From a virus (lineage: Duplodnaviria; Heunggongvirae; Uroviricota; Caudoviricetes): 64,000 nucleotides of DNA. The notes below the pieces were generated by a model. The model did not search any database. It saw nothing but the letters and a program-made list of their open reading frames with translations, and was not told where the DNA came from. Below, one piece after another: positions 28,177 through 46,808 of this stretch. The stretch lies in IMG/VR virus record IMGVR_UViG_3300029604_000306; one strand, written 5' to 3'. The first letter of the stretch is position 1; every line of letters begins with the position of its first letter. A program made the position numbers and the translations under genes.

Positions 28177-28185
28177 GGCATATTA
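28177..28185 (+). promoter_or_regulatory. GGCATATTA box P17 (a second half-box tcatattg sits at ~28165)
   Basis: ccttcatattgttttcggcatattaac lies upstream of 28224. Confidence 0.5.
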
Positions 28186-29535: not shown

Positions 29536-29880
29536 AGCTTGTCAGCCTCTGCGAGGCTTGGTAACGAGCCGGTAACGGCGAGTTATCATATTTATTCTGG
29601 TAACGAAGGCGTTAAGCCTGAGTTATCATTTTTAATCTGGTGCCGAGTCCTGTAAAGCAGGCGAGGTATCATGCGTGCTCTGGTGCCGAATCCGGCAAGG
29701 CCGGTGAGGCATCATATTCATTCTGGTACTGAGTGCGAAGCACGAAGTATCATATTTATTCTCTGCACTCAGCCTTACGGTTTCGCTTGACATTTGCTGC
29801 GCAAATTGGTAACGAGCCGATGCGACAAGGTATCATGCGTGCTCTGGTACCGACTCCGGCAAAGCCGGCGAGGTATCAAA
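29536..29880 (+). repeat. family-A/C hairpin-repeat array (7 A units plus 1 C module)
   Basis: Units read ctggtRNCGA-[4-5-bp stem, 3-4-nt loop, stem]-GAGGTATCAT-7 nt. Stem sequences differ between units (CCTG/CAGG, CCGGC/GCCGG, GCCG/CGGC, AGGC/GCCT, GTGC/GCAC) but remain complementary. Confidence 0.7.
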
Positions 29881-30842: not shown

Positions 30843-31471
30843 GCAAGGAGAAACTATGTCAATCTGCTCAGCTCCCTCCTCCTCTGGGCTGCATGGCGGC
30901 CAAAGGCCGCCTTTCAAAACGTATGGTTACGAAATATAAATTTACTTTTTTCAAGGTGTAACGTTGAGATGGCAACTGGGAATGCAGCCCATTAACGAAG
31001 GGTGTGATTTATCCGGTAAAGCGACATCACGCATCGTAATAACACTCAACATGTCAAAACTTTTAGAATATATGAATCACGCCCGCACTAACGAAAGGAA
31101 AAAGCTGAGACAAGACATGTACACTGCAAAATCTTCATATATCTGGAACGCGAAGATACTGGATATCACGATATATATGAATTTTAAGAAAACTTATAGG
31201 ATATCCAGTATCGGAGCGGATAGAGCCTTCCGCGATTTTGTAGTGTACATGTCTTGTCTCGAGGTCAGAGTAATCGGCTTGCCGATTAGGATGACCTCCA
31301 TGTTTTTTATATACGTTTTTTATATACAAATACACTGTTCTTCCAAATATTTATCATATTGTACATAGAGAACCGGGACACAAACGACGTGTCTGCAACA
31401 ACTGGCCATTGCATCAACACTTTAAATTCCTGTTTCGGTTATCGGCAACAAAACACACAGGAGGATAAAAT

Positions 31472-32536
31472 ATGTTTTTTGTTATAGTTATTCTAGTAAT
31501 AATCATCGTATTCCTGGCGAACCAGATACGTATCGTCCCTCAGCAGGCATGCTACATTATTGAACGCCTTGGAAAATACAGCACAACGTGGGAGGCTGGC
31601 CTGCATGTGAAAGTTCCAGTCATTGATAAGATTGTAAAGAAAATCTCCATCAAGGAACAGGTGTACGATTTTCCGCCACAGGATGTTATCACAAAAGATA
31701 ACGTCACAATTAGTATCGATTCTGTCGTGTATGCAAGTGTTTTCGACCCAAAATTGTATACATATGGGATTGAGAAACCTATCACTGGTTTACAGAATTT
31801 GACAGCCACGACTCTCAGAAGTATTATTGGCGCCATGGAATTAGACCAGACACTGTCTTCGAGAGCAGATATCAACCGCCAGATGCAGGATGTGCTTGAT
31901 GAAGCAACTGATGAATGGGGTATTAAGGTATCACGCGTGGAGGTCAAAAATATCAAGCCACCGAAAGAGATTGAAGAGGTCATGACAAAGCAGATGAGGG
32001 CTGAAAGAGAAAGACGCCAGACCGTATTGGAAGCACAGGCACATAAAGAATCTGTAGTATCCAGGGCAGAAGGTGATAAGCAGGCGAAACTGCTTGACGC
32101 AGAAGCTGAGAGAGACGCAAAAATTGCTCTTGCGAAAGGCCAGGCGGAGGCTATCAGGCTTGTATATGAAGCAGAAGCAGAAGGACTTAGAAGGCTTGCG
32201 GAGTCAGGCGTAAATGAAAATATTTTACGTTTAAAATCTATTGAGGCGATGAAGGATGTAGCCGATGGCCGGGCTACAAAAATCTTTATCCCAAATAATC
32301 TGGCAGAAGGTGTCGGGCCTGCAGCGATTGCCGGCGAGGCTTTTTGGGGAGCAACAAAGGAACCTAAAAAGGAATTCTCAAATGCCGAAGCGGAAAAAAT
32401 CCGAAAAGAAAGATGCGTCAAAAAGACGGTGTCTGAGGATGCCTGTATGAAAGCACCAAGGACGAAAGTAAGTATGCAGTCGGCGATGACTAATGCGGGA
32501 ATGGTCCATGATATGCATAAGGACGAAACTGACTGA
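31472..32536 (+). CDS. SPFH/band-7 (stomatin/HflK/C-like) membrane protein
   Basis: N-terminal TM, then an SPFH core (IVPQQACYIIERLGKY…GLHVKVPVIDKI…ISIDSVVYASV…) followed by a coiled-coil. acaggaggat RBS. Confidence 0.8.
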   Translation: MFFVIVILVIIIVFLANQIRIVPQQACYIIERLGKYSTTWEAGLHVKVPVIDKIVKKISIKEQVYDFPPQDVITKDNVTISIDSVVYASVFDPKLYTYGIEKPITGLQNLTATTLRSIIGAMELDQTLSSRADINRQMQDVLDEATDEWGIKVSRVEVKNIKPPKEIEEVMTKQMRAERERRQTVLEAQAHKESVVSRAEGDKQAKLLDAEAERDAKIALAKGQAEAIRLVYEAEAEGLRRLAESGVNENILRLKSIEAMKDVADGRATKIFIPNNLAEGVGPAAIAGEAFWGATKEPKKEFSNAEAEKIRKERCVKKTVSEDACMKAPRTKVSMQSAMTNAGMVHDMHKDETD

Positions 32537-32615
32537 CAGGCGCTGCAATAGACAAAAAAAAATAAGAAAAAGGTACATCGCAAAATGCTACGATGTACCT
32601 TTTTTATTTTATTTT

Positions 32616-32623
32616 GCATATTG
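32616..32623 (+). promoter_or_regulatory. GCATATTG box P19
   Basis: tattttgcatattggag lies upstream of 32695. Confidence 0.5.
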
Positions 32624-32694
32624 GAGAATAGAGAAAAGAAAAAAAAGACTCTCTAAAAGAAAGAAAACTATAGAAAAAAAGAGGAGGAAAAAAT

Positions 32695-33549
32695 ATGGCA
32701 AGACATAATTATGTGAGTGTTCTTGCGCTGGTACGAAAGGAACCAAAATTCAAAGACACAGTTGACGGAAGAGCCGGAATCGTTGGTCTTACAACGATTA
32801 TGAGTGGAAGAGAGTACGACAAGGCTACAAGCGGTTATCAATTAAACAGTGTTTCTTTTTGTGCCAGAACACAGGAAAAAGAAATCCTTGATGTGATGGA
32901 TACATTGCAGTTATGGGATGTTGTAAAAATGACAGGATTTTTAGCAACAAGAGAAAAAGATAAAAAAGCAGAGTGTCCGTTTTGCAATGCGGTCAACCGA
33001 AGAGTTGATGCATGCGTAAGAAACGGAAAGCCAAAATCCGGTGGTAATGAGATTTTTGTATATCCAATTACGCTAAGAGTAGAGGAGAAGTTTGAAACCG
33101 AGCAGGCAGCGTACGAGTATCTGCATGCAAACGAAGAGGATGCAAACCGTGTGTTTGTGCTTGGTAATTTAACAAACTCTCCTATCCACGGGGAGCTGCA
33201 GGGAGGACGAAAGCCGTATACAAGATTCCAGCTGGCTATCAACCGTAAGTATTGCCCAAAGGGCGGAAATGAAATGTACGAAAGGACAGATTATCCGTGG
33301 GTGTATTCTTATGGCGACAAATCTATCGAAGATTACCAGAATCTTGAAAAAGGTGCCCTCGTATTTGTAGATGGCGCCCTGCAGGCAAGAAAATTTAAAG
33401 AACAGTATACCTGTGGAGTATGCGGCGAAGAGTATGACGTAAGGGGAAGGACACTGGAAGTCCTTTCATACGATACAGAATATCTTAGACTTCCGAACCT
33501 GGCTCCGGATGACGAAGAAGACGATGATGAGAACGAAGATTCAGAGTAA
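32695..33549 (+). CDS. SSB-like single-stranded-DNA-binding protein with two OB-fold-like segments, a Zn ribbon and an acidic tail
   Basis: The N-terminus NYVSVLALVRKEPKF resembles the SSB NRVxLVGRLxxDPE start. A second segment NRVFVLGNLTNSPIH follows. CPFC…C ribbon. C-terminal DDEEDDDENEDSE tail. Confidence 0.45.
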   Translation: MARHNYVSVLALVRKEPKFKDTVDGRAGIVGLTTIMSGREYDKATSGYQLNSVSFCARTQEKEILDVMDTLQLWDVVKMTGFLATREKDKKAECPFCNAVNRRVDACVRNGKPKSGGNEIFVYPITLRVEEKFETEQAAYEYLHANEEDANRVFVLGNLTNSPIHGELQGGRKPYTRFQLAINRKYCPKGGNEMYERTDYPWVYSYGDKSIEDYQNLEKGALVFVDGALQARKFKEQYTCGVCGEEYDVRGRTLEVLSYDTEYLRLPNLAPDDEEDDDENEDSE

Positions 33550-33649
33550 CTATATGAGGCAGCGGCATAAACTCCGCTGCTTTTTTGATGAAACGAAAAA
33601 CATTCATATTAAATGTGAAATAAAAACAAATAAGAAAGGGGAAATTAAT

Positions 33650-34747
33650 TTGAGAACATTTAATATGGAAGGCCTGAAAGATTTATGGGAAGACTATTCC
33701 TCTGCAATAAAATCGACAAAGATTGATTTTAAAAAAGCAAAAATCTATCAGGCAAAGGAAATAAAAACAGGAGGGCTGGAAATGCTGGTCACATCCGTAA
33801 GTACTGGAAAACAGGAGACGATTTTTGAGCAATTGCCTGATAAAATGTGCTATATCATCAATAAATCTGAGTGCTTTTATGAGATTGACGGAATACGTTA
33901 TATCCCAAGCCGTGAAGTAAACAGCAGAACACTGAACGATTACAGCCGCAAGAATATTGTTGATGACTGTATGAACAAAGGAAAAACAAAAGAACCTCCT
34001 ATAACGGTAAATCATTTCTCATCACCGAACACATTGAAAACACTGGCCGGAAGATTAAGGCGGACAGATGAGCTTATCGGTATTCATTATAAACCGGTCC
34101 GTGCCAGAAAAAAAGTATATGCACGGCTTGTTGGGTTAAAATCTATGAATGGTGAGAATCAGATTTCTGCGGTAGAGATTGCTGGATGTCTATATGATAA
34201 ATACGGAAGGAGTATGCTGTTTGAGTCTGCATACCTAGAGCAGATAAAAAGACAGCCAGCATTAAGCTTTACTTTTAGATGCAAACCTGCCCGGTTGCGT
34301 TCCGACGGAATCCCGGTATGTATTTTGTTCCAGGATACATTATCTGGGAGAAAGAGCATGCGCGTCGATTTTGCAGTAAAGATTGACAACAGGCTGTATA
34401 TCCTTGACAGCATGGAAGTTAACCATCGTACTAAGATGTCCGGAGACGAGATTGCCGATAACATCATTAAACGATTCGAAGTATGTTATACGGCAGATTT
34501 AAATCTAAATATTACAGCAAATGATATCATTAAAAACGTGCTGCAAAAAGGACTTGTTCCAAAAAAAGCAGAAGAGAGGTTTGTAACTTATATGTCATCT
34601 ATTAACACTGATACGCCAATCGCTATGGCTTCAGATGTAATAAAGACAGGGATATTTAATATAAAAAACAAAAAGCATACAAGCAGCGGATATGACGGCG
34701 GAAAGCGTCGCTATGAGTTGGAGTTGGGACGCGCTCTGATAAGATAA
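33650..34747 (+). CDS. hypothetical protein (~366 aa)
   Basis: aagaaagggg RBS with a TTG at 33650 (or the ATG at 33665). No recognised motifs. Confidence 0.45.
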   Translation: MRTFNMEGLKDLWEDYSSAIKSTKIDFKKAKIYQAKEIKTGGLEMLVTSVSTGKQETIFEQLPDKMCYIINKSECFYEIDGIRYIPSREVNSRTLNDYSRKNIVDDCMNKGKTKEPPITVNHFSSPNTLKTLAGRLRRTDELIGIHYKPVRARKKVYARLVGLKSMNGENQISAVEIAGCLYDKYGRSMLFESAYLEQIKRQPALSFTFRCKPARLRSDGIPVCILFQDTLSGRKSMRVDFAVKIDNRLYILDSMEVNHRTKMSGDEIADNIIKRFEVCYTADLNLNITANDIIKNVLQKGLVPKKAEERFVTYMSSINTDTPIAMASDVIKTGIFNIKNKKHTSSGYDGGKRRYELELGRALIR

Positions 34748-34805
34748 TGTTTTCAAAAAATATAAGACCGGGGAGATATCTCCGGTTTCTTTTTTTGGGC
34801 ATACT

Positions 34806-34895
34806 AATTTTAATCTCTGCACTCAGTCTTACGGCTTCGCTTGTCATTTGCTGCGCAAATTGGTAACGAATCCGGCAGAGCTGGTGGGGTATCGA
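34806..34895 (+). repeat. family-C module plus one family-A unit
   Basis: tctctgcactcagtcttacggcttcgcttgtcatttgctgcgcaaattggtaacgaatccggcagagctggtggggtatcgag. The stem ccggc/gctgg pairs through a G·T wobble. Confidence 0.6.
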
Positions 34896-34929
34896 GATAA
34901 ACGCATAAGAAGGTATGGAGGAATAAAGT

Positions 34930-35799
34930 ATGGCATTTATGACAGAAACGGCAAAATATGAAACAAAAAATGTGGAAAATATGATTAGAGGTTCTCGTAA
35001 TATTACTTTTTTGAATATATTTAGCGTAGGTAAAGAAATCCTGCGTATTGAGGCAGAAACCTATTATGTGGAAGATGTTCTTGAGAATGGCGATGTTATT
35101 AATATAATCGGAAAATTCATTGCAAACTCTGACCCTTGTGCCAAATTGAACATCGTTTGTAAAGATGAAAGAAAGAGAAGACCAGAAACATTAAGAAAAG
35201 TTGGAGTAACACTTGAAGAATTAAGAAATGGTATGGAAAAGAAGGAAATGGCAAGAGCTGTGTCTGATTATTTTATAAAATATGACGGGATTATAGTTTC
35301 TTGCAAACCATATTCTATTATTTCGATGCTGAATAATGATATCATTGAATCCAAGTATAAATCTATTGATAATTCATATTTTGATATAAAAAGAATGGCT
35401 AAAAAGTGCGGTGAAAATTTTACAGATAAGAACAGCCTGGAAAATCTAAAAGAAACGTTTATAGACTGCACCGGAAGTTACCGCAGGATGAAAAAGATGG
35501 AACAAAATAAAAAAGCCTGCGTTGTAAACTATGCATATTTTTGGCAGAGTTCGTATCGAAACTATGCAGAATGGATTTTTTGCGATACTTCGATTGGGAA
35601 GATTTATTATGACACGTTGACTGAGAAATGGGGGATTACAAAAAAAGAGGAAAAAGAAAATGGGCTGCGTATCGAAAGTGTTGATACTTTTGATGTAAAA
35701 AAACAATTGATGGATAAATATAGAGTGAATAGCATGATGGAACTTAAAAATCTGCTCAAAGAAAAAGCAGAAGAAAGAGAAAAAAGAATGGCAGTCTGA
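34930..35799 (+). CDS. hypothetical protein (289 aa)
   Basis: ggtatggaggaataaagtATG RBS. Confidence 0.5.
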   Translation: MAFMTETAKYETKNVENMIRGSRNITFLNIFSVGKEILRIEAETYYVEDVLENGDVINIIGKFIANSDPCAKLNIVCKDERKRRPETLRKVGVTLEELRNGMEKKEMARAVSDYFIKYDGIIVSCKPYSIISMLNNDIIESKYKSIDNSYFDIKRMAKKCGENFTDKNSLENLKETFIDCTGSYRRMKKMEQNKKACVVNYAYFWQSSYRNYAEWIFCDTSIGKIYYDTLTEKWGITKKEEKENGLRIESVDTFDVKKQLMDKYRVNSMMELKNLLKEKAEEREKRMAV

Positions 35800-35901
35800 T
35801 ATCTGGAAATAAGTCCGGCAAATTCGGGAAGTCAGTAACAAAGAACAGAAGTTTCAGGCTGGAGATGCTGCTCTGGTGTTTTTTAGCGACAATCAAATTT
35901 A

Positions 35902-35909
35902 GCATATTA
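35902..35909 (+). promoter_or_regulatory. GCATATTA box P20
   Basis: aatttagcatattaaaaatgctaaa (also palindromic) lies upstream of 35965. Confidence 0.45.
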
Positions 35910-35964
35910 AAAATGCTAAACAAAATATAGCTAAAATAGCTAAAAAAAGAAAGGAAAAAATATT

Positions 35965-37116
35965 ATGAAATTTAAAACAGACTATGAGACATTTAGAGGA
36001 GCAATCGCAACAATTGGAAAAGCTGTAAAGAAAAACGGTATCAACGAAATGGCCGTTGTTAAGATGGAGGTAAAAGGAAATATCCTGGAATTATCTACAA
36101 ATGGTAATATTGGATGCATCGTCCAGGTTGAATTGACAGATGGAGAAGATGGAGAGTTTGTCGTGTCATTTTCAGAACTTAACATCTTTAGTCTTAGAAA
36201 GTGCACCGGAAAAATCTCTGCATCATCAAGTGATGATGGCAACGCTATGACCATGATGTACAGAGACGGAAATGCCAAGACTGTACTCACAAGAGTTGAT
36301 GTTGTATTTAATGACGTAGCAAAGCCTGAAAAAGATACACCGAAGGTTGCGCTTCCGTTTGCAACATTAAAGAAAATGGTTGCAGAAACAATTTTTGCTG
36401 CAAGCCGTGAGGAGACAAATGCAGGGTATGGCGTACATCTGAATATCCGTGAAGATGAGGACGGGCTGCTGGCTCTTACGATTACATGCCTTGATGGCTT
36501 ACGCGTGGCTCAGCGAACTGCATATGCTGTCAAGAATGGAGACTACACCGGAACTGTGATTGTTCCGCCTGAGCAGTTTAAGACAATGATTGACATTGTA
36601 GATGCATCAGATGATGATGCTAATATCGATATTACTATCGATAGCGGAAAATTATATATGGATTACAGTAAAAAGCATGTGTGCATTCCGGTCCTGGATA
36701 AAAAATATCCGGCCGTACAGCGAATGATTGACGGAGAAATCGGAAAAGACGCTTGCAAATTCTCTATCACAATTGACAAGAGAGACTTTATTGAATCCAT
36801 CTCCTGTGTTCAGTATGTACTTCAGGAGACCGGGGCATCTGGAGTGAACTCATCAGCGATGCTGAAATTCAAAGAAAAAGAACTCGAGATTGGAGGAATC
36901 GGTCTTTCTCAGTATGGAGAAAAGATTGAGGCTGAGACAGTCGGAGAAGTTCCAGAGCCTGCTTATTTTAACCCGGATTTTCTGAAAGAAGCAGCAAGCA
37001 TTTATCCTAAGGACAAAATTACAATCGGAGTGATTGGACCGAAAGCGCCAATCTGGATGTGCTGTGGGGACAGTAACGAATATGTTTACTGTGTGCTTCC
37101 AAGAAAACGCGAATAA
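35965..37116 (+). CDS. DNA polymerase sliding-clamp (DnaN/beta-clamp)-like protein, 383 aa
   Basis: Length and N-terminal pattern FRGAIATIGKAVKKNGINEMAVVKMEVKGNILELSTNGNIGCIVQVEL parallel DnaN domain I. The C-terminus …EIGGIG…YFNPDFLKEAAS…ITIG parallels the DnaN C-terminus. Confidence 0.5.
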   Translation: MKFKTDYETFRGAIATIGKAVKKNGINEMAVVKMEVKGNILELSTNGNIGCIVQVELTDGEDGEFVVSFSELNIFSLRKCTGKISASSSDDGNAMTMMYRDGNAKTVLTRVDVVFNDVAKPEKDTPKVALPFATLKKMVAETIFAASREETNAGYGVHLNIREDEDGLLALTITCLDGLRVAQRTAYAVKNGDYTGTVIVPPEQFKTMIDIVDASDDDANIDITIDSGKLYMDYSKKHVCIPVLDKKYPAVQRMIDGEIGKDACKFSITIDKRDFIESISCVQYVLQETGASGVNSSAMLKFKEKELEIGGIGLSQYGEKIEAETVGEVPEPAYFNPDFLKEAASIYPKDKITIGVIGPKAPIWMCCGDSNEYVYCVLPRKRE

Positions 37117-37142
37117 GATAAAAATAGAAAAGTTAACATAAT

Positions 37143-37177
37143 AAAAAAGCAAGAGGGCAGCCCTCTTGCTTTTTTAA
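37143..37177. terminator. bidirectional terminator
   Basis: aaaaaagcaagagggcagccctcttgctttttt. A perfect hairpin flanked by an A-run and a T-run. It sits between convergent genes. Confidence 0.6.
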
Positions 37178-37202
37178 TCTTGCACGCTTTGTGAACCTCT
37201 CG

Positions 37203-37285
37203 GAAATTGATAACTCCCCGGCTTTGCCGGAGTCGTTACCAGAATAAATATGAATTACCGAGTATCCGAAGACACCAGGTAAAAC
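37203..37285 (-). repeat. family-A hairpin repeat (reverse orientation, 1-2 units)
   Basis: rc reads ctggtaacgactccggcaaagccggggagttatcaatttccg. It is in the 3' UTR of the TnpB-like gene. Confidence 0.55.
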
Positions 37286-37289
37286 AATT

Positions 37290-37466
37290 ACTTTTACCTG
37301 CGAGAAATACAACCGACACATATGCAAGCATATGCACCAGAACTATCCCTGGACAGAGGCCCGGCTGCAGACATGCTACAGCAGGACACGACGAGGCTCC
37401 TATGGGCCTGAAGCTTTCGACAGAAGGTGTAATAGTCAGAGACTATTTCTTTTCTGCATACTCGTT
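37290..37466 (-). ncRNA. GC-rich structured 3' region downstream of the TnpB-like gene (candidate omega-RNA-like scaffold)
   Basis: About 55-60% GC with internally complementary segments (ggcccggctgcag…ctgcagcaggac, gaggctcctatgggcctg). No ORF. It lies between the stop codon and the bidirectional terminator. Confidence 0.25.
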
Positions 37467-39068
37467 TCAGGCCGCTGCTTTGTATTGGTCGTTACGTGAT
37501 TTGTATATCATCTTAAGATTCTTCTGTAACTCATTATGTTTATACTTATACTTTTCGCATATCTCCTGTATTTCCTGGTCGTCGATTCTTGCCTTGATGT
37601 TCAGGCTTCCAACATAATCCGCATCCGCTTCATATCCGCAGCACTTGCATTTAAAAGACTTGCCATTGCGGTTGTCTTTTTCAAGATGGCTGCATACCGG
37701 ACATGTCTGGCTGGTGTAATCCGGTATAATTTCCTTGAAATCATAGCCATACCAGTTTAAAGTCTCCATGAGCTTCTTCTGCAGCTTCCCTCTCGCAAAT
37801 GTTGACATCATACCGTTAGACTTACGACTTTTGTTAAATTCCCTGATATCCAGTTTTTCTAGGACTGTCAGGGTATCATGTGAGATTGATTCTATATATC
37901 TGTCTATGCTTGATTTAATCTCATGGTCAAGTGTTTCATAATAGCAGCGCTTCTTGCGGTATGGGGCATCAGCCTTTTGAATCATCTGGTCAAGCCGGTC
38001 CATCTTTTTGATGAGAGAACGTCTCACATCTTCCGGAAGGGCCTTATGTCTTCGCAGGTAATGGCTGATACTGCGTTTTTTATTTCTCATGTCAGACAGC
38101 GAAGCGAATGACTTTTCCACTGTATCGTGGTAAAAAGCAATCACCGGCTTCATGCTGCCGATTGGTTTATCTTCAGATGTATGCAGTGTGTCAGAGATAC
38201 CGACATCAACGCCTACCACATTTGAAGTCTTTGGCTGTTTCATTTTTGACTCATAACTCCATCCGACCTGCAGGATTCCGTTTTCATCAATTGACGCCAT
38301 GACTGTACCGGCCATTTTATGTGATTTGATTTTATTGGCAGAATGTCTGCTTGTGTTAATCGGTATTACGATTCTTTCTGCGTTTTTATGTAAAGCGTCG
38401 CTTATCTTAATCACATATGGCATGACGGTATCTGTTGATACTTCAATCTTCATCAGCCTGCTGTCAAGAGGCATATGCGCCCGTCTTAATTCTGGGACAC
38501 GGTATTCCATTGATAAACTGATATACATATCCATGAATTCCACCTGTTTAAATGTAAACTCGTCGTCTGACATTTCATTCAGGATACTGATACAGTCTTC
38601 ATAGAAAGCCTTGTCTTTCTTTGTTTTAGACGCAATCTGTTTCATAGTGCTCAGCATCTCAGACTTCGTCTTGGAATCAATGGACATTGCAAACAGGACT
38701 TTTGATGATGTAAAGACTGACTGTTCTTCTGTATACATATCCTGCCGGATGCTATCCATACGGTTAGAAAGATGGGTCACCGCCATGTCAAAGGCATTCT
38801 GAGAGAATGCAGAATTTGCATTTTTCGGACGGATGGATTTTTCAAACTTGCGGATGTCACTGCTCTTCTTATCATTTTTTACGATTTGAAGTGTAAATTT
38901 ATCATTACCCGCAAGGAGTCTGATATATCCATTTACCATCTTTGTAAATTCATTCTGCATATCCCGGATGATTTTAGATTTGTCTTTATTCGGGCTGCCA
39001 TACAGAAATACACTTTTCGTCATAGAAGTTTCAAACTGCGTATCTTTGCGTCTTCTCGCCTTTGCCAT
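37467..39068 (-). CDS. TnpB/Cas12-family RuvC-like nuclease with a C-terminal zinc ribbon (533 aa)
   Basis: RuvC-I VVGVDVGISDT, RuvC-II TLTVLEKLDIREFN, Zn ribbon CPVCSHL…CKCCGY, and RuvC-III EADADYVGSLNIKAR. rc aaggagg RBS with the ATG at 39068. Its own GCATATTA box sits on the minus strand. Confidence 0.75.
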   Translation of the reverse strand: MAKARRRKDTQFETSMTKSVFLYGSPNKDKSKIIRDMQNEFTKMVNGYIRLLAGNDKFTLQIVKNDKKSSDIRKFEKSIRPKNANSAFSQNAFDMAVTHLSNRMDSIRQDMYTEEQSVFTSSKVLFAMSIDSKTKSEMLSTMKQIASKTKKDKAFYEDCISILNEMSDDEFTFKQVEFMDMYISLSMEYRVPELRRAHMPLDSRLMKIEVSTDTVMPYVIKISDALHKNAERIVIPINTSRHSANKIKSHKMAGTVMASIDENGILQVGWSYESKMKQPKTSNVVGVDVGISDTLHTSEDKPIGSMKPVIAFYHDTVEKSFASLSDMRNKKRSISHYLRRHKALPEDVRRSLIKKMDRLDQMIQKADAPYRKKRCYYETLDHEIKSSIDRYIESISHDTLTVLEKLDIREFNKSRKSNGMMSTFARGKLQKKLMETLNWYGYDFKEIIPDYTSQTCPVCSHLEKDNRNGKSFKCKCCGYEADADYVGSLNIKARIDDQEIQEICEKYKYKHNELQKNLKMIYKSRNDQYKAAA

Positions 39069-39101
39069 TCGTCTCACCTCCTTGCCTTTTCATTACATAT
39101 T

Positions 39102-39110
39102 TAATATGCC
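39102..39110 (-). promoter_or_regulatory. GGCATATTA box P21 (minus strand)
   Basis: rc of ttaatatgcc gives tttttcggcatattaaatat, ~35 nt upstream of the TnpB-like start. Confidence 0.5.
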
Positions 39111-39232
39111 GAAAAATTTACAGACCGGTCGTTTTTTGCGAAAAATTTCTGTATGGAAGTAAAAAATCTTCGCATCCATATCTGGACACGAAGATAAAAA
39201 TCGTAAACGATACTTTTATTTATTTCGCGCTT

Positions 39233-39913
39233 TCATCTCGGTAATTTAATTGCCGAGGATTCCCGCTTTATATCCTCTAATTGTTCATATTTTGACATGA
39301 ACATATAGTTATGAAAAAGAAAATCATTTTTCACTGCAGACGGCATGCTGTCGTGCATGTATTCCAGCGGTGTTGCGTAAAAACTGATATATAATTGATA
39401 TAATTTATTTTGTTTTAAATATTTAATACACTCTTTTGAAGAAAAGAACCTATATAGTTCATCTTCTGATTTGAACATACATGTCTTGTTGATTACATAT
39501 TGAAGACATATTTTGGCGCGAAGCATACCTAGGTATCCGTACATATAGTCCTTTGGGTATCGCCCCTCTCCTGCCATTACCTTATCATATACACGAAGTG
39601 TATACCTTTTTACGTCGTAATCTACATAGCGAGGATAAAGAAGATAAAGGATATATTCTGTATCATCCTTGGTAACATCAGATGGAAACGCAATGTATTT
39701 TACCATCTGGTCAAGTTTCATAAACGAAATGTAATTTTTATTAAATAGCTTTATTGCATTGTGGATATCCCATCCTAATAAATTCTCTATCGCATATCGG
39801 ATTACAGAAAGTGCAATCCTCTCGTTTCCCTTTTTATCAAACAAAAAATAGCTTGTCGGTATGCGCTGCCGGTTTCCAAGCAGGACATCTTCATAATCGT
39901 TTAATATTCCCAT
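39233..39913 (-). CDS. hypothetical protein (226 aa), co-oriented with the TnpB-like gene
   Basis: rc aaaaggagtt RBS. Tyr-rich. No recognisable motifs. Confidence 0.5.
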   Translation of the reverse strand: MGILNDYEDVLLGNRQRIPTSYFLFDKKGNERIALSVIRYAIENLLGWDIHNAIKLFNKNYISFMKLDQMVKYIAFPSDVTKDDTEYILYLLYPRYVDYDVKRYTLRVYDKVMAGEGRYPKDYMYGYLGMLRAKICLQYVINKTCMFKSEDELYRFFSSKECIKYLKQNKLYQLYISFYATPLEYMHDSMPSAVKNDFLFHNYMFMSKYEQLEDIKRESSAIKLPR

Positions 39914-39956
39914 TGTATTTTAACTCCTTTTTCCGATATTTTTTATTTCTTTCTTT

Positions 39957-39964
39957 TAATATGC
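39957..39964 (-). promoter_or_regulatory. GCATATTA box P23 (minus strand), divergent from P22
   Basis: rc of taatatgc gives catttcgcatattaaaag. Confidence 0.45.
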
Positions 39965-40012
39965 GAAATGAATCCCTTTTTAACCTAGCCGTGCCGATAT
40001 TTTTTTTATTTT

Positions 40013-40020
40013 GCATATTG
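40013..40020 (+). promoter_or_regulatory. GCATATTG box P22
   Basis: tattttgcatattggag lies upstream of 40048. Confidence 0.5.
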
Positions 40021-40047
40021 GAGATAAAGATAAAGGAGGAAAAATAT

Positions 40048-41148
40048 ATGGCGACAACAGATATTTTATACAGATATTTTAAAGCCAGACAGGAAGTAAA
40101 TGAAAACGGACATGCAGAAACTCTTGCTCAATGCATCCATTACAATCGCGGAGTTGATGCAGTGGTCCTTGATATGAAAGATAAAGGACTGGCTCAAAAA
40201 ATATTAAAAGAAACAGATATAAATGACGCTTTTGACTCATGGCTGTTGGATATTGCTGGAAACTTGGTTTTAATATATCCACGAGAACAAAGAGAAAAAT
40301 ACATGGAAATTCAGCCACATTTGGTGCTTGGAGAAAAACTGGTGCAGTATGGAGGATTTTCGCACAGCGAAGCAAAAGGTATGATAGATTTTCTTAAGGA
40401 AGCAGGAGTGGATTATAAGCAGTCTATCGGAGAGGATGGAAGGATTAGCTTTTTGCTTGCAGAAAATAAAGAATATATATTTAAAAACGCGATGGATACA
40501 ATAAAGCGAGAAGAAACCACGGAAGTTGGCGAAAAACATTTCGTATCACAGAATTTGTATTGGCGCTATGCCATCAACCAGGCTTCAAAGGCGCTAAATC
40601 ATGATGGCGTTGTATTTTTAGGGAGTGAAGCAGGGACGCGTGGAATAAGAATTGACAAAAATGGAGCAATCAGTATGAATCCATTAAAAAAAGGACGTTT
40701 TATTCCCAAAAATGACCCGGATTATGAGCGTAAAGTATTGAATGAAATTCTGAATACGATGAACGGAAAAGAATTTCCTGTGAAAGTTTTTTATGGAGAA
40801 CTCGCCGATGTAATGAGCAAGGATATGACGCGTAAAAGTTTACGGGAATCCCCTCTGATGCTAAAAAAGAGAGAAGCATTGGATATATTAAATTTAAGTG
40901 ATATCCCTTCTGTTGATGAAATTGGAAAGATGGTAAACAATCTTGAGGACTATGGGGACCGCGAAAGAAAAGCGATTTATTCTTTGATGCGGATGCGGGT
41001 ATGTCGTGATTACAAGATAGAAGATATCCAAGCGTACAAGATGTCTAAGCAGGATAAGCAGGATTATAAACAGATGCATGAACAACATATAAAACAATTT
41101 GCGAAAGGATGTAGACAAGACAGGGAGGGGCTGGTAGATGAAAGATGA
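40048..41148 (+). CDS. hypothetical protein (366 aa), translationally coupled to the coupling-protein gene
   Basis: aaaggaggaaaaatatATG. The stop overlaps the next gene by 11 nt. It is a possible relaxosome or accessory component with no motif support. Confidence 0.5.
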   Translation: MATTDILYRYFKARQEVNENGHAETLAQCIHYNRGVDAVVLDMKDKGLAQKILKETDINDAFDSWLLDIAGNLVLIYPREQREKYMEIQPHLVLGEKLVQYGGFSHSEAKGMIDFLKEAGVDYKQSIGEDGRISFLLAENKEYIFKNAMDTIKREETTEVGEKHFVSQNLYWRYAINQASKALNHDGVVFLGSEAGTRGIRIDKNGAISMNPLKKGRFIPKNDPDYERKVLNEILNTMNGKEFPVKVFYGELADVMSKDMTRKSLRESPLMLKKREALDILNLSDIPSVDEIGKMVNNLEDYGDRERKAIYSLMRMRVCRDYKIEDIQAYKMSKQDKQDYKQMHEQHIKQFAKGCRQDREGLVDER

Positions 41149-43687
41149 TAAAGAACTTGAACAGAAAAAGCTTGCCTTTGTCTTGTATGGCATCTTGTGG
41201 TTTATTGGCCTGATGATAGCTGGTGCATTTGGCTATCAGAAGCATACACAGGATGGAGCAAGTATTTTTTCAGCAGTGGAAGCGGTATCCCATTTTGGTA
41301 TCTTCTATTGGTTAAATCCGGTAAGCTGGGGTACATGCTTGAGATGGACGTTTATATATTGGATTGGTGTAGCGCTTTTCATGATATATGAGCAAAAATG
41401 GAAACATGATGCGGCCGGTAAAGAGGCCGGCTCGGCTCATTGGAATAAGAAAGTTGAAGAATTTAACCAAGGACATTCGGAGCCGTTTGGTGAAAAGACT
41501 TTTAGTGACGAGCCTGGTCTGACAAAAAAAATGGGTGGGGAAAACCTGAACAATAAAAAGACACCACCAGTACCAGGAAACCCTAACATGATAGAATCGG
41601 AATTGGTAAGGCTGTCAACAGCTGATATGAAAACACATTTGAATAACAATGTTTTTATTGTCGGTGGTGCTGGTACTGGTAAATCACGATTTTTTATAAA
41701 GCCAAACGTATTACAGATGAACTGCTCTTACATAGTAACAGACCCTTCCGGAGAGCTTCTGAAATCAATGCATAACGTATTGGTTGAGAATGGGTATAAG
41801 ATAAAAGTATTTAACTTGGTCGATATGTCTCATTCAAATAAGTACAATCCATTCCGATACGTCAGGAGCGAAACAGATGTCAGTATTCTGGTGGACTGTT
41901 TTATTTCAAACACAACAGGTCCGGACCAAAAAAGCGGCGACCCGTTCTGGGATAAATCGGAAAAGGCTTTGCTCTCAGCGCTGGTATTTTATCTTGTTGA
42001 TATTGCTGATGCAGAGTTTAGGAAGTTCTCAACCATTTTGTGGATGGTACAGTTGGCACAGATGGATGAAAACGGCCGGCCAGGTCAAAAGCCATCGTCT
42101 GAATTTGGCTTCTCTATAGATATGCCGCTTGATGAATTGTTTGATGGAACAAAAAAAATCGGTAAAAAAACAATTACAGATAAAAAGACAGGAAAGAAAC
42201 AGACGGTGCTGGATGCTGTGGAGGTTACGGACCAAAAAGAAATTGGAAGGCTGCGTGATAAAATAGAGACTTCACTTTGCCTCACCAACTATAAGACGTT
42301 CAAACTTGGTGGAACAAAAACGTTGAAATCCATCTTGATTTCAGCTGCTGTTAGACTGAACCCATTTAGTATTCCGGCAATCCAGAATTTGACAGATGAT
42401 GATAACGTGGAACTGGAGAAGGTGGGTGATGAATTGACGTGCTTTTTTGCAATCATTCCGCAGACGAACAGCACATTTAACTTCTTGATTTCCATGCTGT
42501 TCTCTCAGATGTTTGAATCTTTATATTATAAGGGTGCCACAATACCGAATAGCCGGCTTCCATATCATGTAAGGTTCCTGCTCGATGAGTTCGCCAACAT
42601 CGGCAAGATTCCGGAATTCCCACAGAAGATTTCCACTTGCCGAAAATATAATATATCAACAACGATTGTCCTGCAGTCTATTGCACAGATAAAAATGCTG
42701 TATAAGGATGACTATGAGACAATCATCGGTAACTGTGACACCGCAATCTGCCTTGGTACAAATGAGCAGACTACGGCAGATTATTTCAGTAAAAAACTTG
42801 GAAAAGGTACCATCACGTCGAGAAGTAAATCCACGCCCGTGGGCAAGAGCGGAGGCAATCTATCGTTTAACCAAACAGGACGTGAATTGATGCTTCCAGA
42901 TGAGATAATGACCATGCCGTTTGACAAATGTATTGTCATGATGCGAGGAATCGACCCATTTTATGATAGTAAATATCCACTGGAAAAGCATCCACAGTTT
43001 ATGAAAACAGGTGATGGGGATGAAAAAAACTTTTATTTCCTGGAGCAGGACGAAGAGTTTTCGTGCGTTGATAAGTCAGTAGAATATGAGGAGATAGCCG
43101 AGCAGGAAGAAAATAATGATACAGTAAGCGAAAAGTACCAGCCTAAAACACTGGAAGAAGTGCTGGACGGAATTCTGGTCAACTATCCGGAAGAAGATGG
43201 ATATTATCTGATTAAGGATGCAGATAATAACAAAACAAGGAATTCAATGATTACAAAGTACAGTGAATTGCTGGAAGACACAATCCAGATGTCTATGGGT
43301 AACGACGAAACAACGATATTGTTTGACGGGAAAAATATGGATATTGCTCTTGCAAAAGGTCTGATAAACAGGGCTTTTGAACAACATGACGGGGAATTTG
43401 AGGATTTAGCCGTTGCCTGCAACGGAATCAGTGATGGACATGTGTGCTGGTTCGGCGCAAAGAATGACCAATGTAATATCGTTAAAGTAGCAGAACGATT
43501 ACAGTTGTCATTATCCAAGAAAAAACGAGGAAACATATCCAGGCAGGATTTATATAAAGTTAACGATATCCTATCAGAAGATAAGTTTGAAGAATTAAAA
43601 AAAGGATGTAAAAATGGTGCTCATTGTATGGCTTCACAAAAAAATAACGATGTAGATTTTGATGATTATGATGATGATAATGATTGA
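41138..43687 (+). CDS. type IV secretion coupling protein (VirD4/TraG/TraD family ATPase), 849 aa
   Basis: Two N-terminal TM helices. Walker A IVGGAGTGKSRFF. Walker B/DE box FLLDEFANIGKIPEF. Acidic C-terminal tail. Confidence 0.85.
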   Translation: MKDDKELEQKKLAFVLYGILWFIGLMIAGAFGYQKHTQDGASIFSAVEAVSHFGIFYWLNPVSWGTCLRWTFIYWIGVALFMIYEQKWKHDAAGKEAGSAHWNKKVEEFNQGHSEPFGEKTFSDEPGLTKKMGGENLNNKKTPPVPGNPNMIESELVRLSTADMKTHLNNNVFIVGGAGTGKSRFFIKPNVLQMNCSYIVTDPSGELLKSMHNVLVENGYKIKVFNLVDMSHSNKYNPFRYVRSETDVSILVDCFISNTTGPDQKSGDPFWDKSEKALLSALVFYLVDIADAEFRKFSTILWMVQLAQMDENGRPGQKPSSEFGFSIDMPLDELFDGTKKIGKKTITDKKTGKKQTVLDAVEVTDQKEIGRLRDKIETSLCLTNYKTFKLGGTKTLKSILISAAVRLNPFSIPAIQNLTDDDNVELEKVGDELTCFFAIIPQTNSTFNFLISMLFSQMFESLYYKGATIPNSRLPYHVRFLLDEFANIGKIPEFPQKISTCRKYNISTTIVLQSIAQIKMLYKDDYETIIGNCDTAICLGTNEQTTADYFSKKLGKGTITSRSKSTPVGKSGGNLSFNQTGRELMLPDEIMTMPFDKCIVMMRGIDPFYDSKYPLEKHPQFMKTGDGDEKNFYFLEQDEEFSCVDKSVEYEEIAEQEENNDTVSEKYQPKTLEEVLDGILVNYPEEDGYYLIKDADNNKTRNSMITKYSELLEDTIQMSMGNDETTILFDGKNMDIALAKGLINRAFEQHDGEFEDLAVACNGISDGHVCWFGAKNDQCNIVKVAERLQLSLSKKKRGNISRQDLYKVNDILSEDKFEELKKGCKNGAHCMASQKNNDVDFDDYDDDND

Positions 43688-43699
43688 CATTGCTGGTTA

Positions 43700-43743
43700 G
43701 AAAGGACACCGCGTATTTTATACGCGGTGTCCTTTCTTTTTGC
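43700..43743 (+). terminator. rho-independent terminator
   Basis: gaaaggacaccgcgtattttatacgcggtgtcctttc followed by T5. Confidence 0.65.
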
Positions 43744-43783
43744 AAAAAAAACATTTTTACTCCGTTCGAAAAATGAAAAATTC

Positions 43784-43792
43784 GGCATATTG
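43784..43792 (+). promoter_or_regulatory. GGCATATTG box P24
   Basis: aaattcggcatattgaagg lies upstream of 43831. Confidence 0.5.
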
Positions 43793-43830
43793 AAGGCAAA
43801 CCGCAAAAATAAAAAAAAGGAGAGAAAGAT

Positions 43831-44082
43831 ATGCAACATATTGAAATAACAGAGCATGACTTTGATGCCTTAATGGATAAACTGGAAAAGATTGAAATGG
43901 AAAACGATGGATATATTCCGTCAGAGGAAGACGTTTTTGATTATATTGAAAAAAATCCAGAAAGATATTACCTGTATTTGCTTTGGTACAGCGAACATAA
44001 GCCGAAGCCTCAGACAGAGGAAGAAAAAAAGATTTTAAAAAAAATTACAAAGATAACTAATCAAACAATCAAGATTTTATAA
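43831..44082 (+). CDS. hypothetical small protein (83 aa)
   Basis: aaaaggagagaaagatATG. Confidence 0.5.
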   Translation: MQHIEITEHDFDALMDKLEKIEMENDGYIPSEEDVFDYIEKNPERYYLYLLWYSEHKPKPQTEEEKKILKKITKITNQTIKIL

Positions 44083-44096
44083 GGAGGGAATAAAAA

Positions 44097-46745
44097 ATGA
44101 GATATTTATATCTGGCGGAGAAGCCGTCTGCTATGAAATCGGTGAAGGCTGCTTATAATGCAAGCAATAAGCCGCTCGGCGATATTGATTTTTTCGCTCT
44201 AGCCGGACATATCTGCCGTTTATGTGAACCAAAAGAATATGAAGACTGGGATGTAAAATGGGCAGACCGAAAGCTGCCAATGATTCCGAACCCGTTTAGG
44301 GTTGGAATCTTGACAGATAACAAAGTAAAAGACTTAAAAGAACAGCTAAAAAAAGTTAAATACGATGCAATCATTGTCGGCACCGATAGTGATGTGGAAG
44401 GTAACGGCATCTATGACCTGATTGAAACATACCTTGGGCTGCAGAATTATAAGACTTACCGATTTTTTGAATCTGACCTGACGCCGGCTGGAATCATGAA
44501 ATCAATGAATAACCTGACAGATTATCATACAAATCCACGTGATGTAGGGATGACACAGTCTTTTAGAATCCGAAGCCGGTTCGACTGGCTGATTGGTTTT
44601 AATATGACTGTCGCATATACAGTGAAATCAGGTTTTTTGATGAAGGTTGGACGAGTTAAGGCGCCAACATTAAAACTCGTGTATGACAACTGTAAGGCAA
44701 TTGACGAATTTAGCTCTAAGACGGCATATCAGCCGGCAATCGTAACAGAAAACCCGGAAGTTACTGCATATATGATTGACGATGAAGGCAAGGCAGTGTC
44801 TTATGCTGATAAAAATGAAGCCCAGAAAGTTCTGACTACATTAAGCGGTGAAGCGGAGGTGCTGAGTTTTGAAAAAACAACAAAAAAAACGCAGCCGGAC
44901 CAGTTATATAAATTAACCGACATCCAGGTCGAAGCCGGTTCTAAGTATGGATATACCCCGGAAAAGACTCTGGAGCTGATTCAGTCTCTGTATGAAAGAC
45001 ATAAGCTTATTTCATATCCAAGAACTGATGGAAGGTATGTGTCTACCGAAAAATCAAAAGACTTTGCCAGATTACTGAAAGCGGTAGAGGCTATGCCGAG
45101 TCTTTCTGCAGCAGTAAAAACGGTTACCCCGGAAGCAATCGCTGCTGCACAGGGGAATAAACGATTTGTAAATGATGTTGAAGTACAGAAATCCTCGCAT
45201 GATGCGCTTATCCCGACAGGCGATACAGCAGCGCTTGCAAATCTGTCTATGGATGAGATGCATATCTGTGAAATGATTTTCAAAAGATTTCTTGCAATAT
45301 TCTTCCCTCCATTGGAAGAAGAAAAAACAAAAGCAGTGCTGACTGACAATAATATTAAGTTTTCCTGCACCGGCTCCAAAGTTGTGAATCCTGGCTTTAC
45401 AGTCCTTACCTCAAAGCCAAAGGAGGCACCGCTTCCAGACTTTAAAAAGGGGCAGAAATTAAAAGAAAAAGAAACATCCTTGCACGAAATCGTAAGCAAG
45501 CCGCCTGCGCGTTTTACACAGGCAACACTTATCAAAGCGATGGAGAATGTCCAGAAATACATGGCGGCTGATGAGACAGAGCTTAAGAAGGCGCTGAAGA
45601 AAGCAGGAGGCATTGGCCAGCCGTCATCCAGAGCCGCAATCATTTCCGAACTGGTTTCTACTGGATATATTGATGACGTAAAGTCTGGGAAAGGAAAGGG
45701 CCTCCATATTACAGATTCCGGTAAACGTTACATAGAGAATCTTGGCAGCAGTTCTATTGTAAGCCCTGAACTTTCTGCACAGTGGGAAGTATATATGAAT
45801 GATATACGTGAAGGCACCAAGACATATGATGAAGTCTATGAAAAGGTCATTGACTATGTATATCAGGCTTTAAAAGAACTGGAAGGGATGAAAATCCAGA
45901 AAATGGCTGCAGGAAACAGAAAAGAGGTCGGCAAATGCCCGAAATGCGGAAGACCGGTTGTTGCCCTGCCAAAAGGATACGGCTGCAGCGGTTATCCTGA
46001 CTGTGATTTTTCCGTATTTAAACGTGTTGCAGGAACAGACCTTACAGATAAGGATATGGCGGATATGCTGAACGGAAAGGCTACGAAAGTTATGAGTTTT
46101 AAGAAGAAAGATGGGAGCACTTTCTCTGCCGCGTTAATACTAAATAAAGAACATAAAATTACATGGGCTCCATTTGAAAGTAAGACAGACTTGACGTGTC
46201 CAAAGTGTGGAAAGCCGCTGGTTAAGACTCCTATGTCTTATAAATGCGATGACGACGAGTGCGGTTTCATATTCTGGACGAAAATCTGTGGAAAAACATT
46301 GACAGATACACAGGTGAAAAAATTGCTTTCTGGGCAGTCTACCGGAACAATCAAAGGATTTAAGAAAAAAGATGGTACATCCTTTAATGCCAGTCTGATA
46401 ATGAAAGATGGAAAACTGGAATGGGAACATAGCATTGCAAAAGATACCGGTCTCAAGTGTCCGAAATGCGGAAAGCCAATTGTTGCAACAGACAAGGCTT
46501 TCTCCTGCGCAGATAAAAAAGACGGCAAGTGCGATTTTCAGATTTGGAGAATGCTTCCAGGCGATAAGGTCGTATTGACAGAAAAAGATATGAAGGATTT
46601 GCTTGAAAAGAAAAAGACAGGCCTCAAAAAGGATTTAAAAAGTAAAGGTGGAAACACATTTAATGCTTATATAACCTTAAAAGACGATTTTACAAGAGGT
46701 ATGGAATTCGCAGACACAGAGAGAAAAAAGAAACCGCAAAAATAA
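44097..46745 (+). CDS. topB: DNA topoisomerase III (type IA) with multiple C-terminal zinc ribbons
   Basis: Toprim start LYLAEKPSA and the DxD motif VGTDSDVEGNGIYD. The catalytic-domain Tyr region is present. Four Cys-4 ribbons (CPKCGRP…CSGYPDC, CPKCGKPL…, CPKCGKPI…). Confidence 0.88.
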   Translation: MRYLYLAEKPSAMKSVKAAYNASNKPLGDIDFFALAGHICRLCEPKEYEDWDVKWADRKLPMIPNPFRVGILTDNKVKDLKEQLKKVKYDAIIVGTDSDVEGNGIYDLIETYLGLQNYKTYRFFESDLTPAGIMKSMNNLTDYHTNPRDVGMTQSFRIRSRFDWLIGFNMTVAYTVKSGFLMKVGRVKAPTLKLVYDNCKAIDEFSSKTAYQPAIVTENPEVTAYMIDDEGKAVSYADKNEAQKVLTTLSGEAEVLSFEKTTKKTQPDQLYKLTDIQVEAGSKYGYTPEKTLELIQSLYERHKLISYPRTDGRYVSTEKSKDFARLLKAVEAMPSLSAAVKTVTPEAIAAAQGNKRFVNDVEVQKSSHDALIPTGDTAALANLSMDEMHICEMIFKRFLAIFFPPLEEEKTKAVLTDNNIKFSCTGSKVVNPGFTVLTSKPKEAPLPDFKKGQKLKEKETSLHEIVSKPPARFTQATLIKAMENVQKYMAADETELKKALKKAGGIGQPSSRAAIISELVSTGYIDDVKSGKGKGLHITDSGKRYIENLGSSSIVSPELSAQWEVYMNDIREGTKTYDEVYEKVIDYVYQALKELEGMKIQKMAAGNRKEVGKCPKCGRPVVALPKGYGCSGYPDCDFSVFKRVAGTDLTDKDMADMLNGKATKVMSFKKKDGSTFSAALILNKEHKITWAPFESKTDLTCPKCGKPLVKTPMSYKCDDDECGFIFWTKICGKTLTDTQVKKLLSGQSTGTIKGFKKKDGTSFNASLIMKDGKLEWEHSIAKDTGLKCPKCGKPIVATDKAFSCADKKDGKCDFQIWRMLPGDKVVLTEKDMKDLLEKKKTGLKKDLKSKGGNTFNAYITLKDDFTRGMEFADTERKKKPQK

Positions 46746-46764
46746 TATCATCGAAAAAAATTCA

Positions 46765-46772
46765 GCATACTG
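46765..46772 (+). promoter_or_regulatory. variant box GCATACTG (P25)
   Basis: aaattcagcatactgatt lies upstream of 46809. Confidence 0.35.
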
Positions 46773-46808
46773 ATTTTGCAAAAAGGACAGGAAAGGAGCA
46801 TATCATCA

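Follow-up and report, generated by a model that had tools for sequence, protein, structure and literature searches.

A probable non-autonomous IS200/IS605-family insertion sequence carrying TnpB and a predicted omega-RNA within a gut conjugative element

Combining comparison of many copies with profile and structure searches and RNA covariation analysis, our work here concerns a TnpB locus in a 64,000-nucleotide (nt) stretch of viral-catalogue DNA (IMG/VR record IMGVR_UViG_3300029604_000306, filed under Caudoviricetes; hereafter the window). We consider it very likely that positions 39276-37191 on its minus strand are a non-autonomous, tnpA-less insertion sequence (IS) of the IS200/IS605 family that inserted 3' of TTAG among the final codons of a DUF4046 gene and that carries TnpB together with its omega-RNA. 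An earlier note on this DNA had reported that IS ends were absent and had read the nuclease as domesticated rather than as a transposon passenger. Both statements give way once copies are compared, as the left end at 39276 and the right end at 37191 are sharply set, the unit occupies at least 20 sites, the site is uninterrupted in relatives, and the family has tnpA. The features of the unit and its edges, in window coordinates, are as follows.

39276-37191, minus strand: whole IS unit, 2,086 bp (2,043 bp minus the 43-nt hairpin insert); tnpA-less, IS200/IS605 family
39277-39280, minus strand: TTAG, host DNA conserved 5' of the left end; putative transposon-adjacent motif (TAM) and TnpA left cleavage site
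39276-39237, minus strand: left end, AG plus GATATAAAGCGGGAATC, then the subterminal hairpin CTCGGCAATTAAATTACCGAG at 39257-39237
39068-37467, minus strand: tnpB coding sequence, 533 amino acids (aa) from ATG; RNA-guided RuvC nuclease, its family given by sequence and structure matches
37407-37191, minus strand: predicted omega-RNA scaffold, about 174-175 nt plus the 43-nt insert, ending ...GGTTCAC at the right-end boundary
37258-37199, minus strand: right-end hairpin, split by the 43-nt insert and conserved across the family
37250-37208, minus strand: 43-nt hairpin unit TATTTATTCTGGTAACGACTCCGGCAAAGCCGGGGAGTTATCA, in the loop of the terminal right-end/omega-RNA hairpin
37190-37171, minus strand: predicted guide segment AAAGCGTGCAAGATTAAAAA, host DNA directly 3' of the right end
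37176-37142: bidirectional host terminator, 3' of the structured non-coding stretch

Results

The boundaries come from a blastn comparison of window positions 33000-44000 with 102 loci encoding TnpB relatives, in which homology begins at about 39276 and stops at about 37251 or 37191 irrespective of the neighbouring genes, while outside both ends the flanking sequences are unrelated between loci. In human-gut metagenomes, copies with identical sharp ends lie at no fewer than 20 unrelated sites; flank listings give a tally of at least 20 distinct right flanks for the subclade nearest the window, and two copies whose coding sequences are 99.2% identical (L028 and L030) occupy different insertion sites. 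Lachnospiraceae isolates and metagenome-assembled genomes (Anthropogastromicrobium aceti, Acetatifactor and Wujia chipingensis) carry two to three copies per genome. These were recovered by a profile search of genome contigs with an alignment as query, unlike a single-protein query of the genome contigs, which found nothing. A megablast of the region against PLSDB plasmids and INPHARED phages returned no match.

Both ends have subterminal imperfect palindromes conserved family-wide and lack terminal inverted repeats, and the left and right hairpins are nearly alike, as in IS200/IS605 elements. The left-end consensus across copies reads ...TTAG / GATAnnAAGCGGGAATC-CTCGGyAATTmAATTrCCGAG-ATGAAAGCG, the slash marking the boundary, and the right-end consensus ...GATGCTCGGTAATTCA-ATTkCCGAGrGrTTCAC. 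The arrangement of TTAG, GA...AAGCGGGAATC, hairpin and ATGAAAGCG at the left end is the same with or without tnpA. In all copies other than the window's, including those bearing tnpA, (T)TTAG, or TTAC in one sub-lineage, stands directly before GATA; the motif was present 5' of the left end in 17 of the 17 flanking contexts inspected, the window copy having two extra bases after it. By analogy with IS200/IS605 biology, TTAG would act as the TAM. The extra bases, AG at 39276-39275 between TTAG and the left end, occur only in copies at this insertion site (L023, L024, L025, L032, L036 and the window), and may change the spacing from cleavage site to hairpin and thereby immobilise the window copy.

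Two other loci bear separate observations on the family. An inverted left-end fragment adjoins a full copy at positions 1615-1704 of L043, which is evidence for repeated insertion at or near one place. On the 220-kb contig L002, the IS copy at 586-2628 adjoins genes for an EcoO109I-type restriction enzyme and a DNA methylase, and 2 kb downstream, at 6738-8213, there is another OrfB_IS605 TnpB (491 aa) that is unrelated to it.

Inspection of the left flank identifies the gene into which the unit inserted. The 226-aa open reading frame (ORF) at 39913-39233, upstream of tnpB and co-oriented with it, is a resident gene with an IS-supplied end rather than a part of a TnpB module. It belongs to Pfam DUF4046 (65 homologues carry PF13255), and the C-terminal tails of this family diverge past residue 212, precisely where the IS left end begins. 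In the window the stop codon of the gene, at 39235-39233, falls inside the left end, so that the final 14 codons and the stop are supplied by the IS; as read from these alignments, the native 3' end is displaced by the insertion.

The uninserted arrangement is preserved in related elements. Three loci (L125, L126 and L128) encode a DUF4046 protein 79-81% identical to that of the window and lack TnpB, and their gene order runs from a type IV secretion system (T4SS) coupling protein through a gene of 367-376 aa and DUF4046 to a 35-48-nt terminator, followed by convergent DnaN-like, 281-aa, 352-aa and SSB genes. Removing 39276-37191 in silico leaves DUF4046 ending ...KYEQLESVQD and a stop, directly before the terminator at 37176-37142, and the IS-free form of the window site would read ...ATGAACAATTAG joined to AAAGCGTGCAAG. 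The layout obtained by deletion is that of the uninserted relatives, which themselves lack TnpB, and this marks the TnpB unit as an insertion. We found no IS-free allele with more than 90% identity to the window, and searching IMG/VR for the exact right flank in an IS-free allele gave no match. Among DUF4046 alleles, one of 213 aa (P0122) is otherwise identical to that of the window, with a 13-residue internal deletion and the IS-derived tail kept. In L125 (1-4822), the Pfam T4SS coupling-protein domains are divided between two called genes, which are separated by an RVT_1 gene and two small ORFs; the RVT_1 reverse-transcriptase gene is possibly a group II intron.

Family placement follows from the transposase of the relatives. 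Consistent with the earlier note, tblastn gave no tnpA in the window (E > 0.1). In relatives at 51-58% TnpB identity, however, the sequence upstream of tnpB often ends ...ETIRKYIEHQSKQY and a stop, and in one of the loci (L111) an intact 157-aa ORF directly upstream of tnpB is a Y1_Tnp transposase (PF01797, 3e-41). Used as a tblastn query, this TnpA gave near-full-length upstream matches in L018, L064, L067, L094, L099, L106, L109, L112, L116 and L118 (Thermoanaerobacter), and intact Y1 TnpA lies directly upstream both in family members 51-58% identical and in one 35% identical. About 30 further loci keep a common internally deleted tnpA (approximately residues 21-50 and 110-157; for example L068-L073, L083, L085-L088, L095, L096 and L105), and one non-autonomous deletion derivative has therefore proliferated widely. 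The same query detected neither tnpA nor a remnant in the window copy and its subclade. The earlier note had named an IS605 TnpB with left and right ends and a TnpA remnant as the outcome that would speak against its reading; most of this was found, namely the ends and, across the family, tnpA or its remnants, with no remnant in this copy. Since the end hairpins match those of tnpA-bearing relatives, mobilisation in trans by a Y1 TnpA is plausible. Two other identities were tried and set aside: IS607, which uses a serine recombinase, was ruled out as the relatives carry Y1 TnpA, and an IStron, a fusion with a group I intron, was rejected with only 208 nt upstream of tnpB and no Rfam intron match.

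The protein encoded at 39068-37467 is, by its sequence, a TnpB/Cas12-type RuvC nuclease with intact catalytic residues. As first noticed, it contains the three RuvC motifs (GVDVGI, LEKLD and DADY) and a CxxC...CxxC zinc ribbon, and in an alignment of 20 TnpB relatives spanning 57-92% identity the catalytic residues D288 (GVDVGI), E404 (LEKLD) and D482/D484 (DADY) are unchanged throughout, as are the zinc-ribbon cysteines C456/C459/C474/C477, which lie in an insertion within RuvC. The profile and structure searches proposed in the earlier note place the protein among TnpB and Cas12f: Pfam Cas12f1-like_TNB (PF07282) matches at 3e-16 and 59.7 bits (cutoff 26.3), NCBIfam guided_TnpB (NF040570) aligns to residues 232-494, only the C-terminal 60%, at 98.2 bits (cutoff 100), and NCBIfam also gives a weak Cas12f2 match. 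The sequence likewise matches proteins with solved TnpB/Cas12f structures. An AlphaFold model (mean predicted local distance difference test score 79.6) aligns end to end with cryo-electron microscopy structures of AsCas12f, CnCas12f1, ISFba1 TnpB, ISDra2 TnpB and Fanzor, and Foldseek returns whole-length matches to Cas12f and TnpB at E-values of 1e-12 to 1e-6, with template modelling scores of about 0.3 owing to domain placement. At 533 aa the protein is, as had been remarked, longer than the usual TnpB of about 400 aa; in the model a large helical lobe (approximately residues 28-188) accounts for the extra length, together with long helices that separate the RuvC motifs. A large protein collection yielded 515 relatives, mostly full-length at 525-570 aa and nearly all from human-gut metagenomes. 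Two of 570 aa (P0078 and P0087) have a 20-residue insertion, INVERGIPRSESGNEQERRV, right after the RuvC-II catalytic LEKLD (alignment A1, columns 410-429). Purifying selection on tnpB is strong, with a ratio of nonsynonymous to synonymous substitution rates (dN/dS) of 0.07-0.12 in seven more divergent pairs and 0.28 and 0.48 in two near-identical pairs.

Downstream of tnpB, the stretch between the stop codon and the bidirectional terminator is structured and non-coding, as the earlier note had claimed. Every family member 3' of the stop ends GATGCTCGG..ATTCAAT..CCGAG-nRGTTCAC with divergence immediately after, a terminal motif kept even in Virgibacillus and Thermoanaerobacter relatives at 30-35% protein identity. 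For the covariation analysis, a trimmed alignment of 21 scaffolds (A4) replaced an alignment with variable 5' parts and the 43-nt insert (A3), in which the terminal hairpin was split. The RNAalifold consensus of these 21 scaffolds has 45 pairs, 28 of them with compensatory changes, laid out as a long-range closing helix (GGAGCCTC with GAGGTTC in the window), three internal stems and a terminal hairpin that is itself the right-end hairpin. In the closing helix a 5' GAACnnC pairs with GnnGTTC just before the right-end boundary, and the pair sets vary in concert from copy to copy (AACCTC/GAGGTT, AATCCC/GGGATT, AACTAC/GTAGTT, CAACAAC/GTTGTTG, AACGAC/GTCGTT and AACTGC/GCAGTT). Of the cells scored on this structure 93.9% are paired, versus 78.3% in column shuffles (none of 500 reached the observed value) and 34-44% with slid partners, and cells changed on both sides number 144 versus 42.8 expected. 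The many G-U pairs point to an RNA from the tnpB sense strand.

A covariance model built on this structure (R1) matches window positions 37407-37191 over its full length at 117 bits (E 8e-29) and, in Thermoanaerobacter and Virgibacillus relatives outside the training set, locates the scaffold where it was predicted to lie (29-38 bits); it also gives weak hits at the IS left end, through its hairpin part. The scaffold thus turned up where expected in homologues, distant ones included, bearing out the proposal that a guide RNA would lie 3' of tnpB. Searched against Rfam 15, the whole window gave no family at the gathering threshold, and at E up to 10 the segment 37100-37600 gave chance matches to the terminator hairpin only; the scaffold therefore lies outside the curated Rfam families. 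We conclude that the 3' non-coding region is a conserved omega-RNA scaffold, from which a guide RNA would be expressed and processed. Copies diverge exactly after GTTCAC, and by analogy with known TnpB/omega-RNA architecture the flank that follows would be the guide. In the window this segment, AAAGCGTGCAAGATTAAAAA, occurs once and runs into the 5' arm of the host terminator (37176-37142).

A miniature type V CRISPR effector of the Cas12f kind, or a nuclease-dead repressor of the TldR kind, could account for best structural matches that include Cas12f complexes and for the weak Cas12f2 profile match. Yet no spaced direct repeats were found in the 17 kb at 30000-47000, in keeping with the claim that no CRISPR array lies nearby; no cas1 or cas2 was seen either, and the guide-RNA scaffold abuts a transposon end rather than a repeat. 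The Cas12f identity was rejected on the missing array and the TldR identity on the intact, invariant RuvC triad, and in both cases family members carry tnpA. Either proposal strikes us as extremely improbable.

The scaffold of the window copy is interrupted by a 43-nt hairpin that is missing from most copies. The identical insert is present in L026, where the unit DNA is 98% identical and the site different, and in L042, which lies at another site and belongs to a subclade at 64% protein identity. That three copies, from two diverged subclades and at different sites, have an identical insert points either to a small mobile hairpin with site specificity or to gene conversion between right ends. 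Hairpin units of about 36-43 nt (CTGGTAACGACTCCGGCAAAGCCGGsGAGTTATCAA) are dispersed in the conjugative element, with related units in the window at 29852-29873, 50501-50522 and 62934-62955 and an adjacent unit at about 62900.

Where autonomous relatives have tnpA, the window copy has a short leader with the following features, given together with all sites of the bipartite motif in the window.

39195-39166, minus strand: terminator-like hairpin and T-run, located in the IS after the left end and ahead of the promoter
39139-39102, minus strand: bipartite promoter-like motif GCAAAAAA-N22-GCATATTA, upstream of tnpB
39083-39075, minus strand: ribosome-binding site AAGGAGGTG, before tnpB
3559-3597, 8746-8783, 22847-22885, 28145-28185 and 39102-39139 (minus strand): bipartite motif sites in the window

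The terminator-like hairpin may block read-through from the DUF4046 gene. Behind it, the GCATATTA box at 39109-39102 lies 34 nt upstream of the tnpB ATG, and the claim that tnpB uses a box common to the element's other genes holds: GCATATTA is present, in a promoter of the bipartite type of the host element. Alone, GCATATTA occurs 16 times in the window versus 2.9 expected, and the exact bipartite pattern with a 22-25-nt spacer occurs five times versus none expected, with four of the five sites preceding host-element genes. The box is kept at -41 to -48 in IS copies with a TnpB at least 62% identical to the window's (mutated in L001, not found in L037) and is absent upstream of tnpB in other subclades; its density in the flanks of the subclade is 0.33 per kb versus 0.037 per kb for other subclades. 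The shared box and the box-rich flanks together indicate that this tnpA-less subclade resides in a single family of mobile elements that use the box, and that it bears a promoter of their type. The bipartite motif, which precedes many of the element's genes, departs from the sigma-70 consensus; an alternative sigma factor, or one encoded by the element itself, may recognise it. L008, a related element, has a gene for a 665-aa protein resembling sigma-70/extracytoplasmic function (ECF) factors.

These are also the observations from which domestication would be argued, that is, a TnpB that has lost its transposon identity and become, together with the 226-aa gene, a fixed gene under the control of the host element: the unit has no tnpA, its promoter is of host-element type, its subclade sits in box-rich DNA, and tnpB is under strong purifying selection. 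The evidence from the DNA around the gene runs the other way, since both ends are intact with transposon-type hairpins, the unit lies at 20 or more unrelated sites with near-identical copies among them, related elements have no unit at this locus, and the 226-aa gene is a resident truncated by the insertion. Multiple insertion sites and the empty site largely refute domestication, to which we assign a very low probability.

The surroundings identify the window as a conjugative element, encoding a VirD4/TraG-type coupling protein, topoisomerase III, a RecD2-like helicase, a DnaN-like clamp and FtsH, along with BspA-type leucine-rich-repeat proteins and a 2,443-aa protein with a lysozyme domain. 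Human-gut contigs of 56-158 kb share this 11-kb region with the window at about 99% DNA identity, with the TnpB of L023 and L032 reported as 100% identical, and the host of the element is probably a human-gut Lachnospiraceae. The position beside a conjugative coupling-protein operon, first pointed out in the earlier note, is borne out by the second of two neighbouring features.

39913-39277, minus strand: DUF4046 gene, resident in the conjugative element and outside the IS, with PF13255 homologues
41138-43687: T4SS coupling-protein gene, next door to the TnpB/DUF4046 region

Discussion

Our comparison gives directly the boundaries of the unit, its multiple sites, the empty site, family membership, RNA covariation, purifying selection and the shared promoter motif. 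From these, and by analogy with established TnpB behaviour, including the nuclease activity itself, we propose the following mechanism. The tnpB transcript, or its 3' part, would yield an omega-RNA whose scaffold binds TnpB and whose guide is a 3' extension copied from the flanking DNA, here AAAGCGTGCAAGATTAAAAA. The complex would then cut DNA in which TTAG is followed by the guide match, which is the IS-free site left after excision or present in sibling elements, and repair from the IS-bearing copy would retain or spread the element. Movement to new sites would require Y1 TnpA in trans.

Several points weigh against this reading. With no IS-free allele above 90% identity, comparison and the reading-frame argument are the basis for placing the left junction exactly and for the TAM. 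The lack of tnpA or a remnant in the copy and its subclade means that ongoing mobility needs an unseen helper, and both the extra AG and the 43-nt insert in the terminal loop of the scaffold could impair excision or RNA function in the window copy. For the protein, the guided_TnpB score falls slightly short of its curated cutoff, and residues 1 to about 230 lie outside the sequence profiles, their assignment coming from the structural model.

We also considered that the unit, while still a transposon, is kept in this subclade mainly as a weapon of plasmid competition or gene drive, with TnpB and omega-RNA, expressed from the element's promoter, destroying IS-free siblings at conserved loci. 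A recent preprint reports that large conjugative plasmids have IS605/TnpB elements concentrated around their MOB genes, and that these elements work as a gene drive and confer an advantage in plasmid competition (Mears et al., bioRxiv 10.1101/2025.02.20.638934), a picture that the window locus fits; this experimental precedent with IS605 on the F plasmid is matched here by a promoter adapted to the host-element type in a subclade confined to box-rich elements, by a position in a conserved backbone region beside the T4SS coupling-protein operon, and by a dN/dS of about 0.1 although tnpA is lost. However, the IMG/VR search found no IS-free close relative with a matching protospacer, the guide has no match at the orthologous sites of L125 and L128, and insertions are spread over varied sites instead of clustering in backbone genes. 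On balance we regard such a role as the main reason for retention as possible but unlikely. In its fuller form the proposal holds that the tnpA-less subclade has specialised on one family of human-gut conjugative or phage-like elements, swapping tnpA for an insulator and a GCAAAAAA-N22-25-GCATATTA promoter, with TnpB/omega-RNA serving chiefly as an inter-element drive or exclusion weapon; we put this forward tentatively and would sooner bet against it. If true, such specialisation would place the element partway from selfish transposon to domesticated module for defence or competition.

Taken as a non-autonomous IS200/IS605 element, the locus teaches that a lone, tnpA-less TnpB beside conjugation genes is no evidence of domestication, as comparing copies exposes the transposon ends. 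It adds an abundant human-gut TnpB clade with more than 500 homologues, mapped ends, a putative TTAG TAM and a scaffold of about 175 nt supported by covariation, and with these features mapped the nuclease could be tried out as a compact editor. The locus is also a natural example fitting the proposed gene-drive role of TnpB elements on conjugative plasmids, with the twist that the IS promoter matches the type of its host element. The element is of an already-known kind, and its points of interest are modest: a promoter of the host-element type, a TnpB of enlarged size and a hairpin inserted into the scaffold.

IS200/IS605 elements with TnpB and omega-RNA include ISDra2 of Deinococcus radiodurans, IS608 and the Geobacillus IS605 group, and tnpB-only non-autonomous derivatives are widespread. 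The window unit resembles them in the subterminal imperfect hairpins at both ends, in insertion 3' of a short motif (here TTAG) with no target duplication, in the Y1 TnpA directly upstream of tnpB in autonomous relatives, in the WED/REC/RuvC/zinc-ribbon architecture of its TnpB, and in an omega-RNA that lies 3' of the tnpB stop, includes the right end, finishes at the boundary and would take its guide from the flank. Unlike them, its protein has 533 aa rather than about 400, with a larger helical lobe in the model, its scaffold matches no Rfam 15 family and has a foreign 43-nt hairpin in the terminal loop, and tnpA is replaced by a terminator-like hairpin and a promoter of the host conjugative element's type.

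In both the window and the system of Mears et al., a TnpB IS neighbours the transfer genes of a large conjugative element and has a guide set by the insertion site in the backbone; that work, in contrast, used E. coli F-plasmid constructs and PLSDB statistics, whereas ours reads from sequence a tnpA-less IS in an element of uncultured gut Firmicutes. Cas12f (type V-F) provides the best structural matches and is similar in size, in its RuvC and zinc-ribbon core and in its T-rich 5' motif, but the window locus has no CRISPR array or adaptation genes, a single fixed guide from the flank, and transposon ends as its bounds. TldR likewise derives from TnpB, has its guide-RNA scaffold on the 3' side and lacks tnpA; in contrast to TldR, the window TnpB has intact and invariant RuvC residues, and its unit keeps both transposon ends and occurs at many sites.

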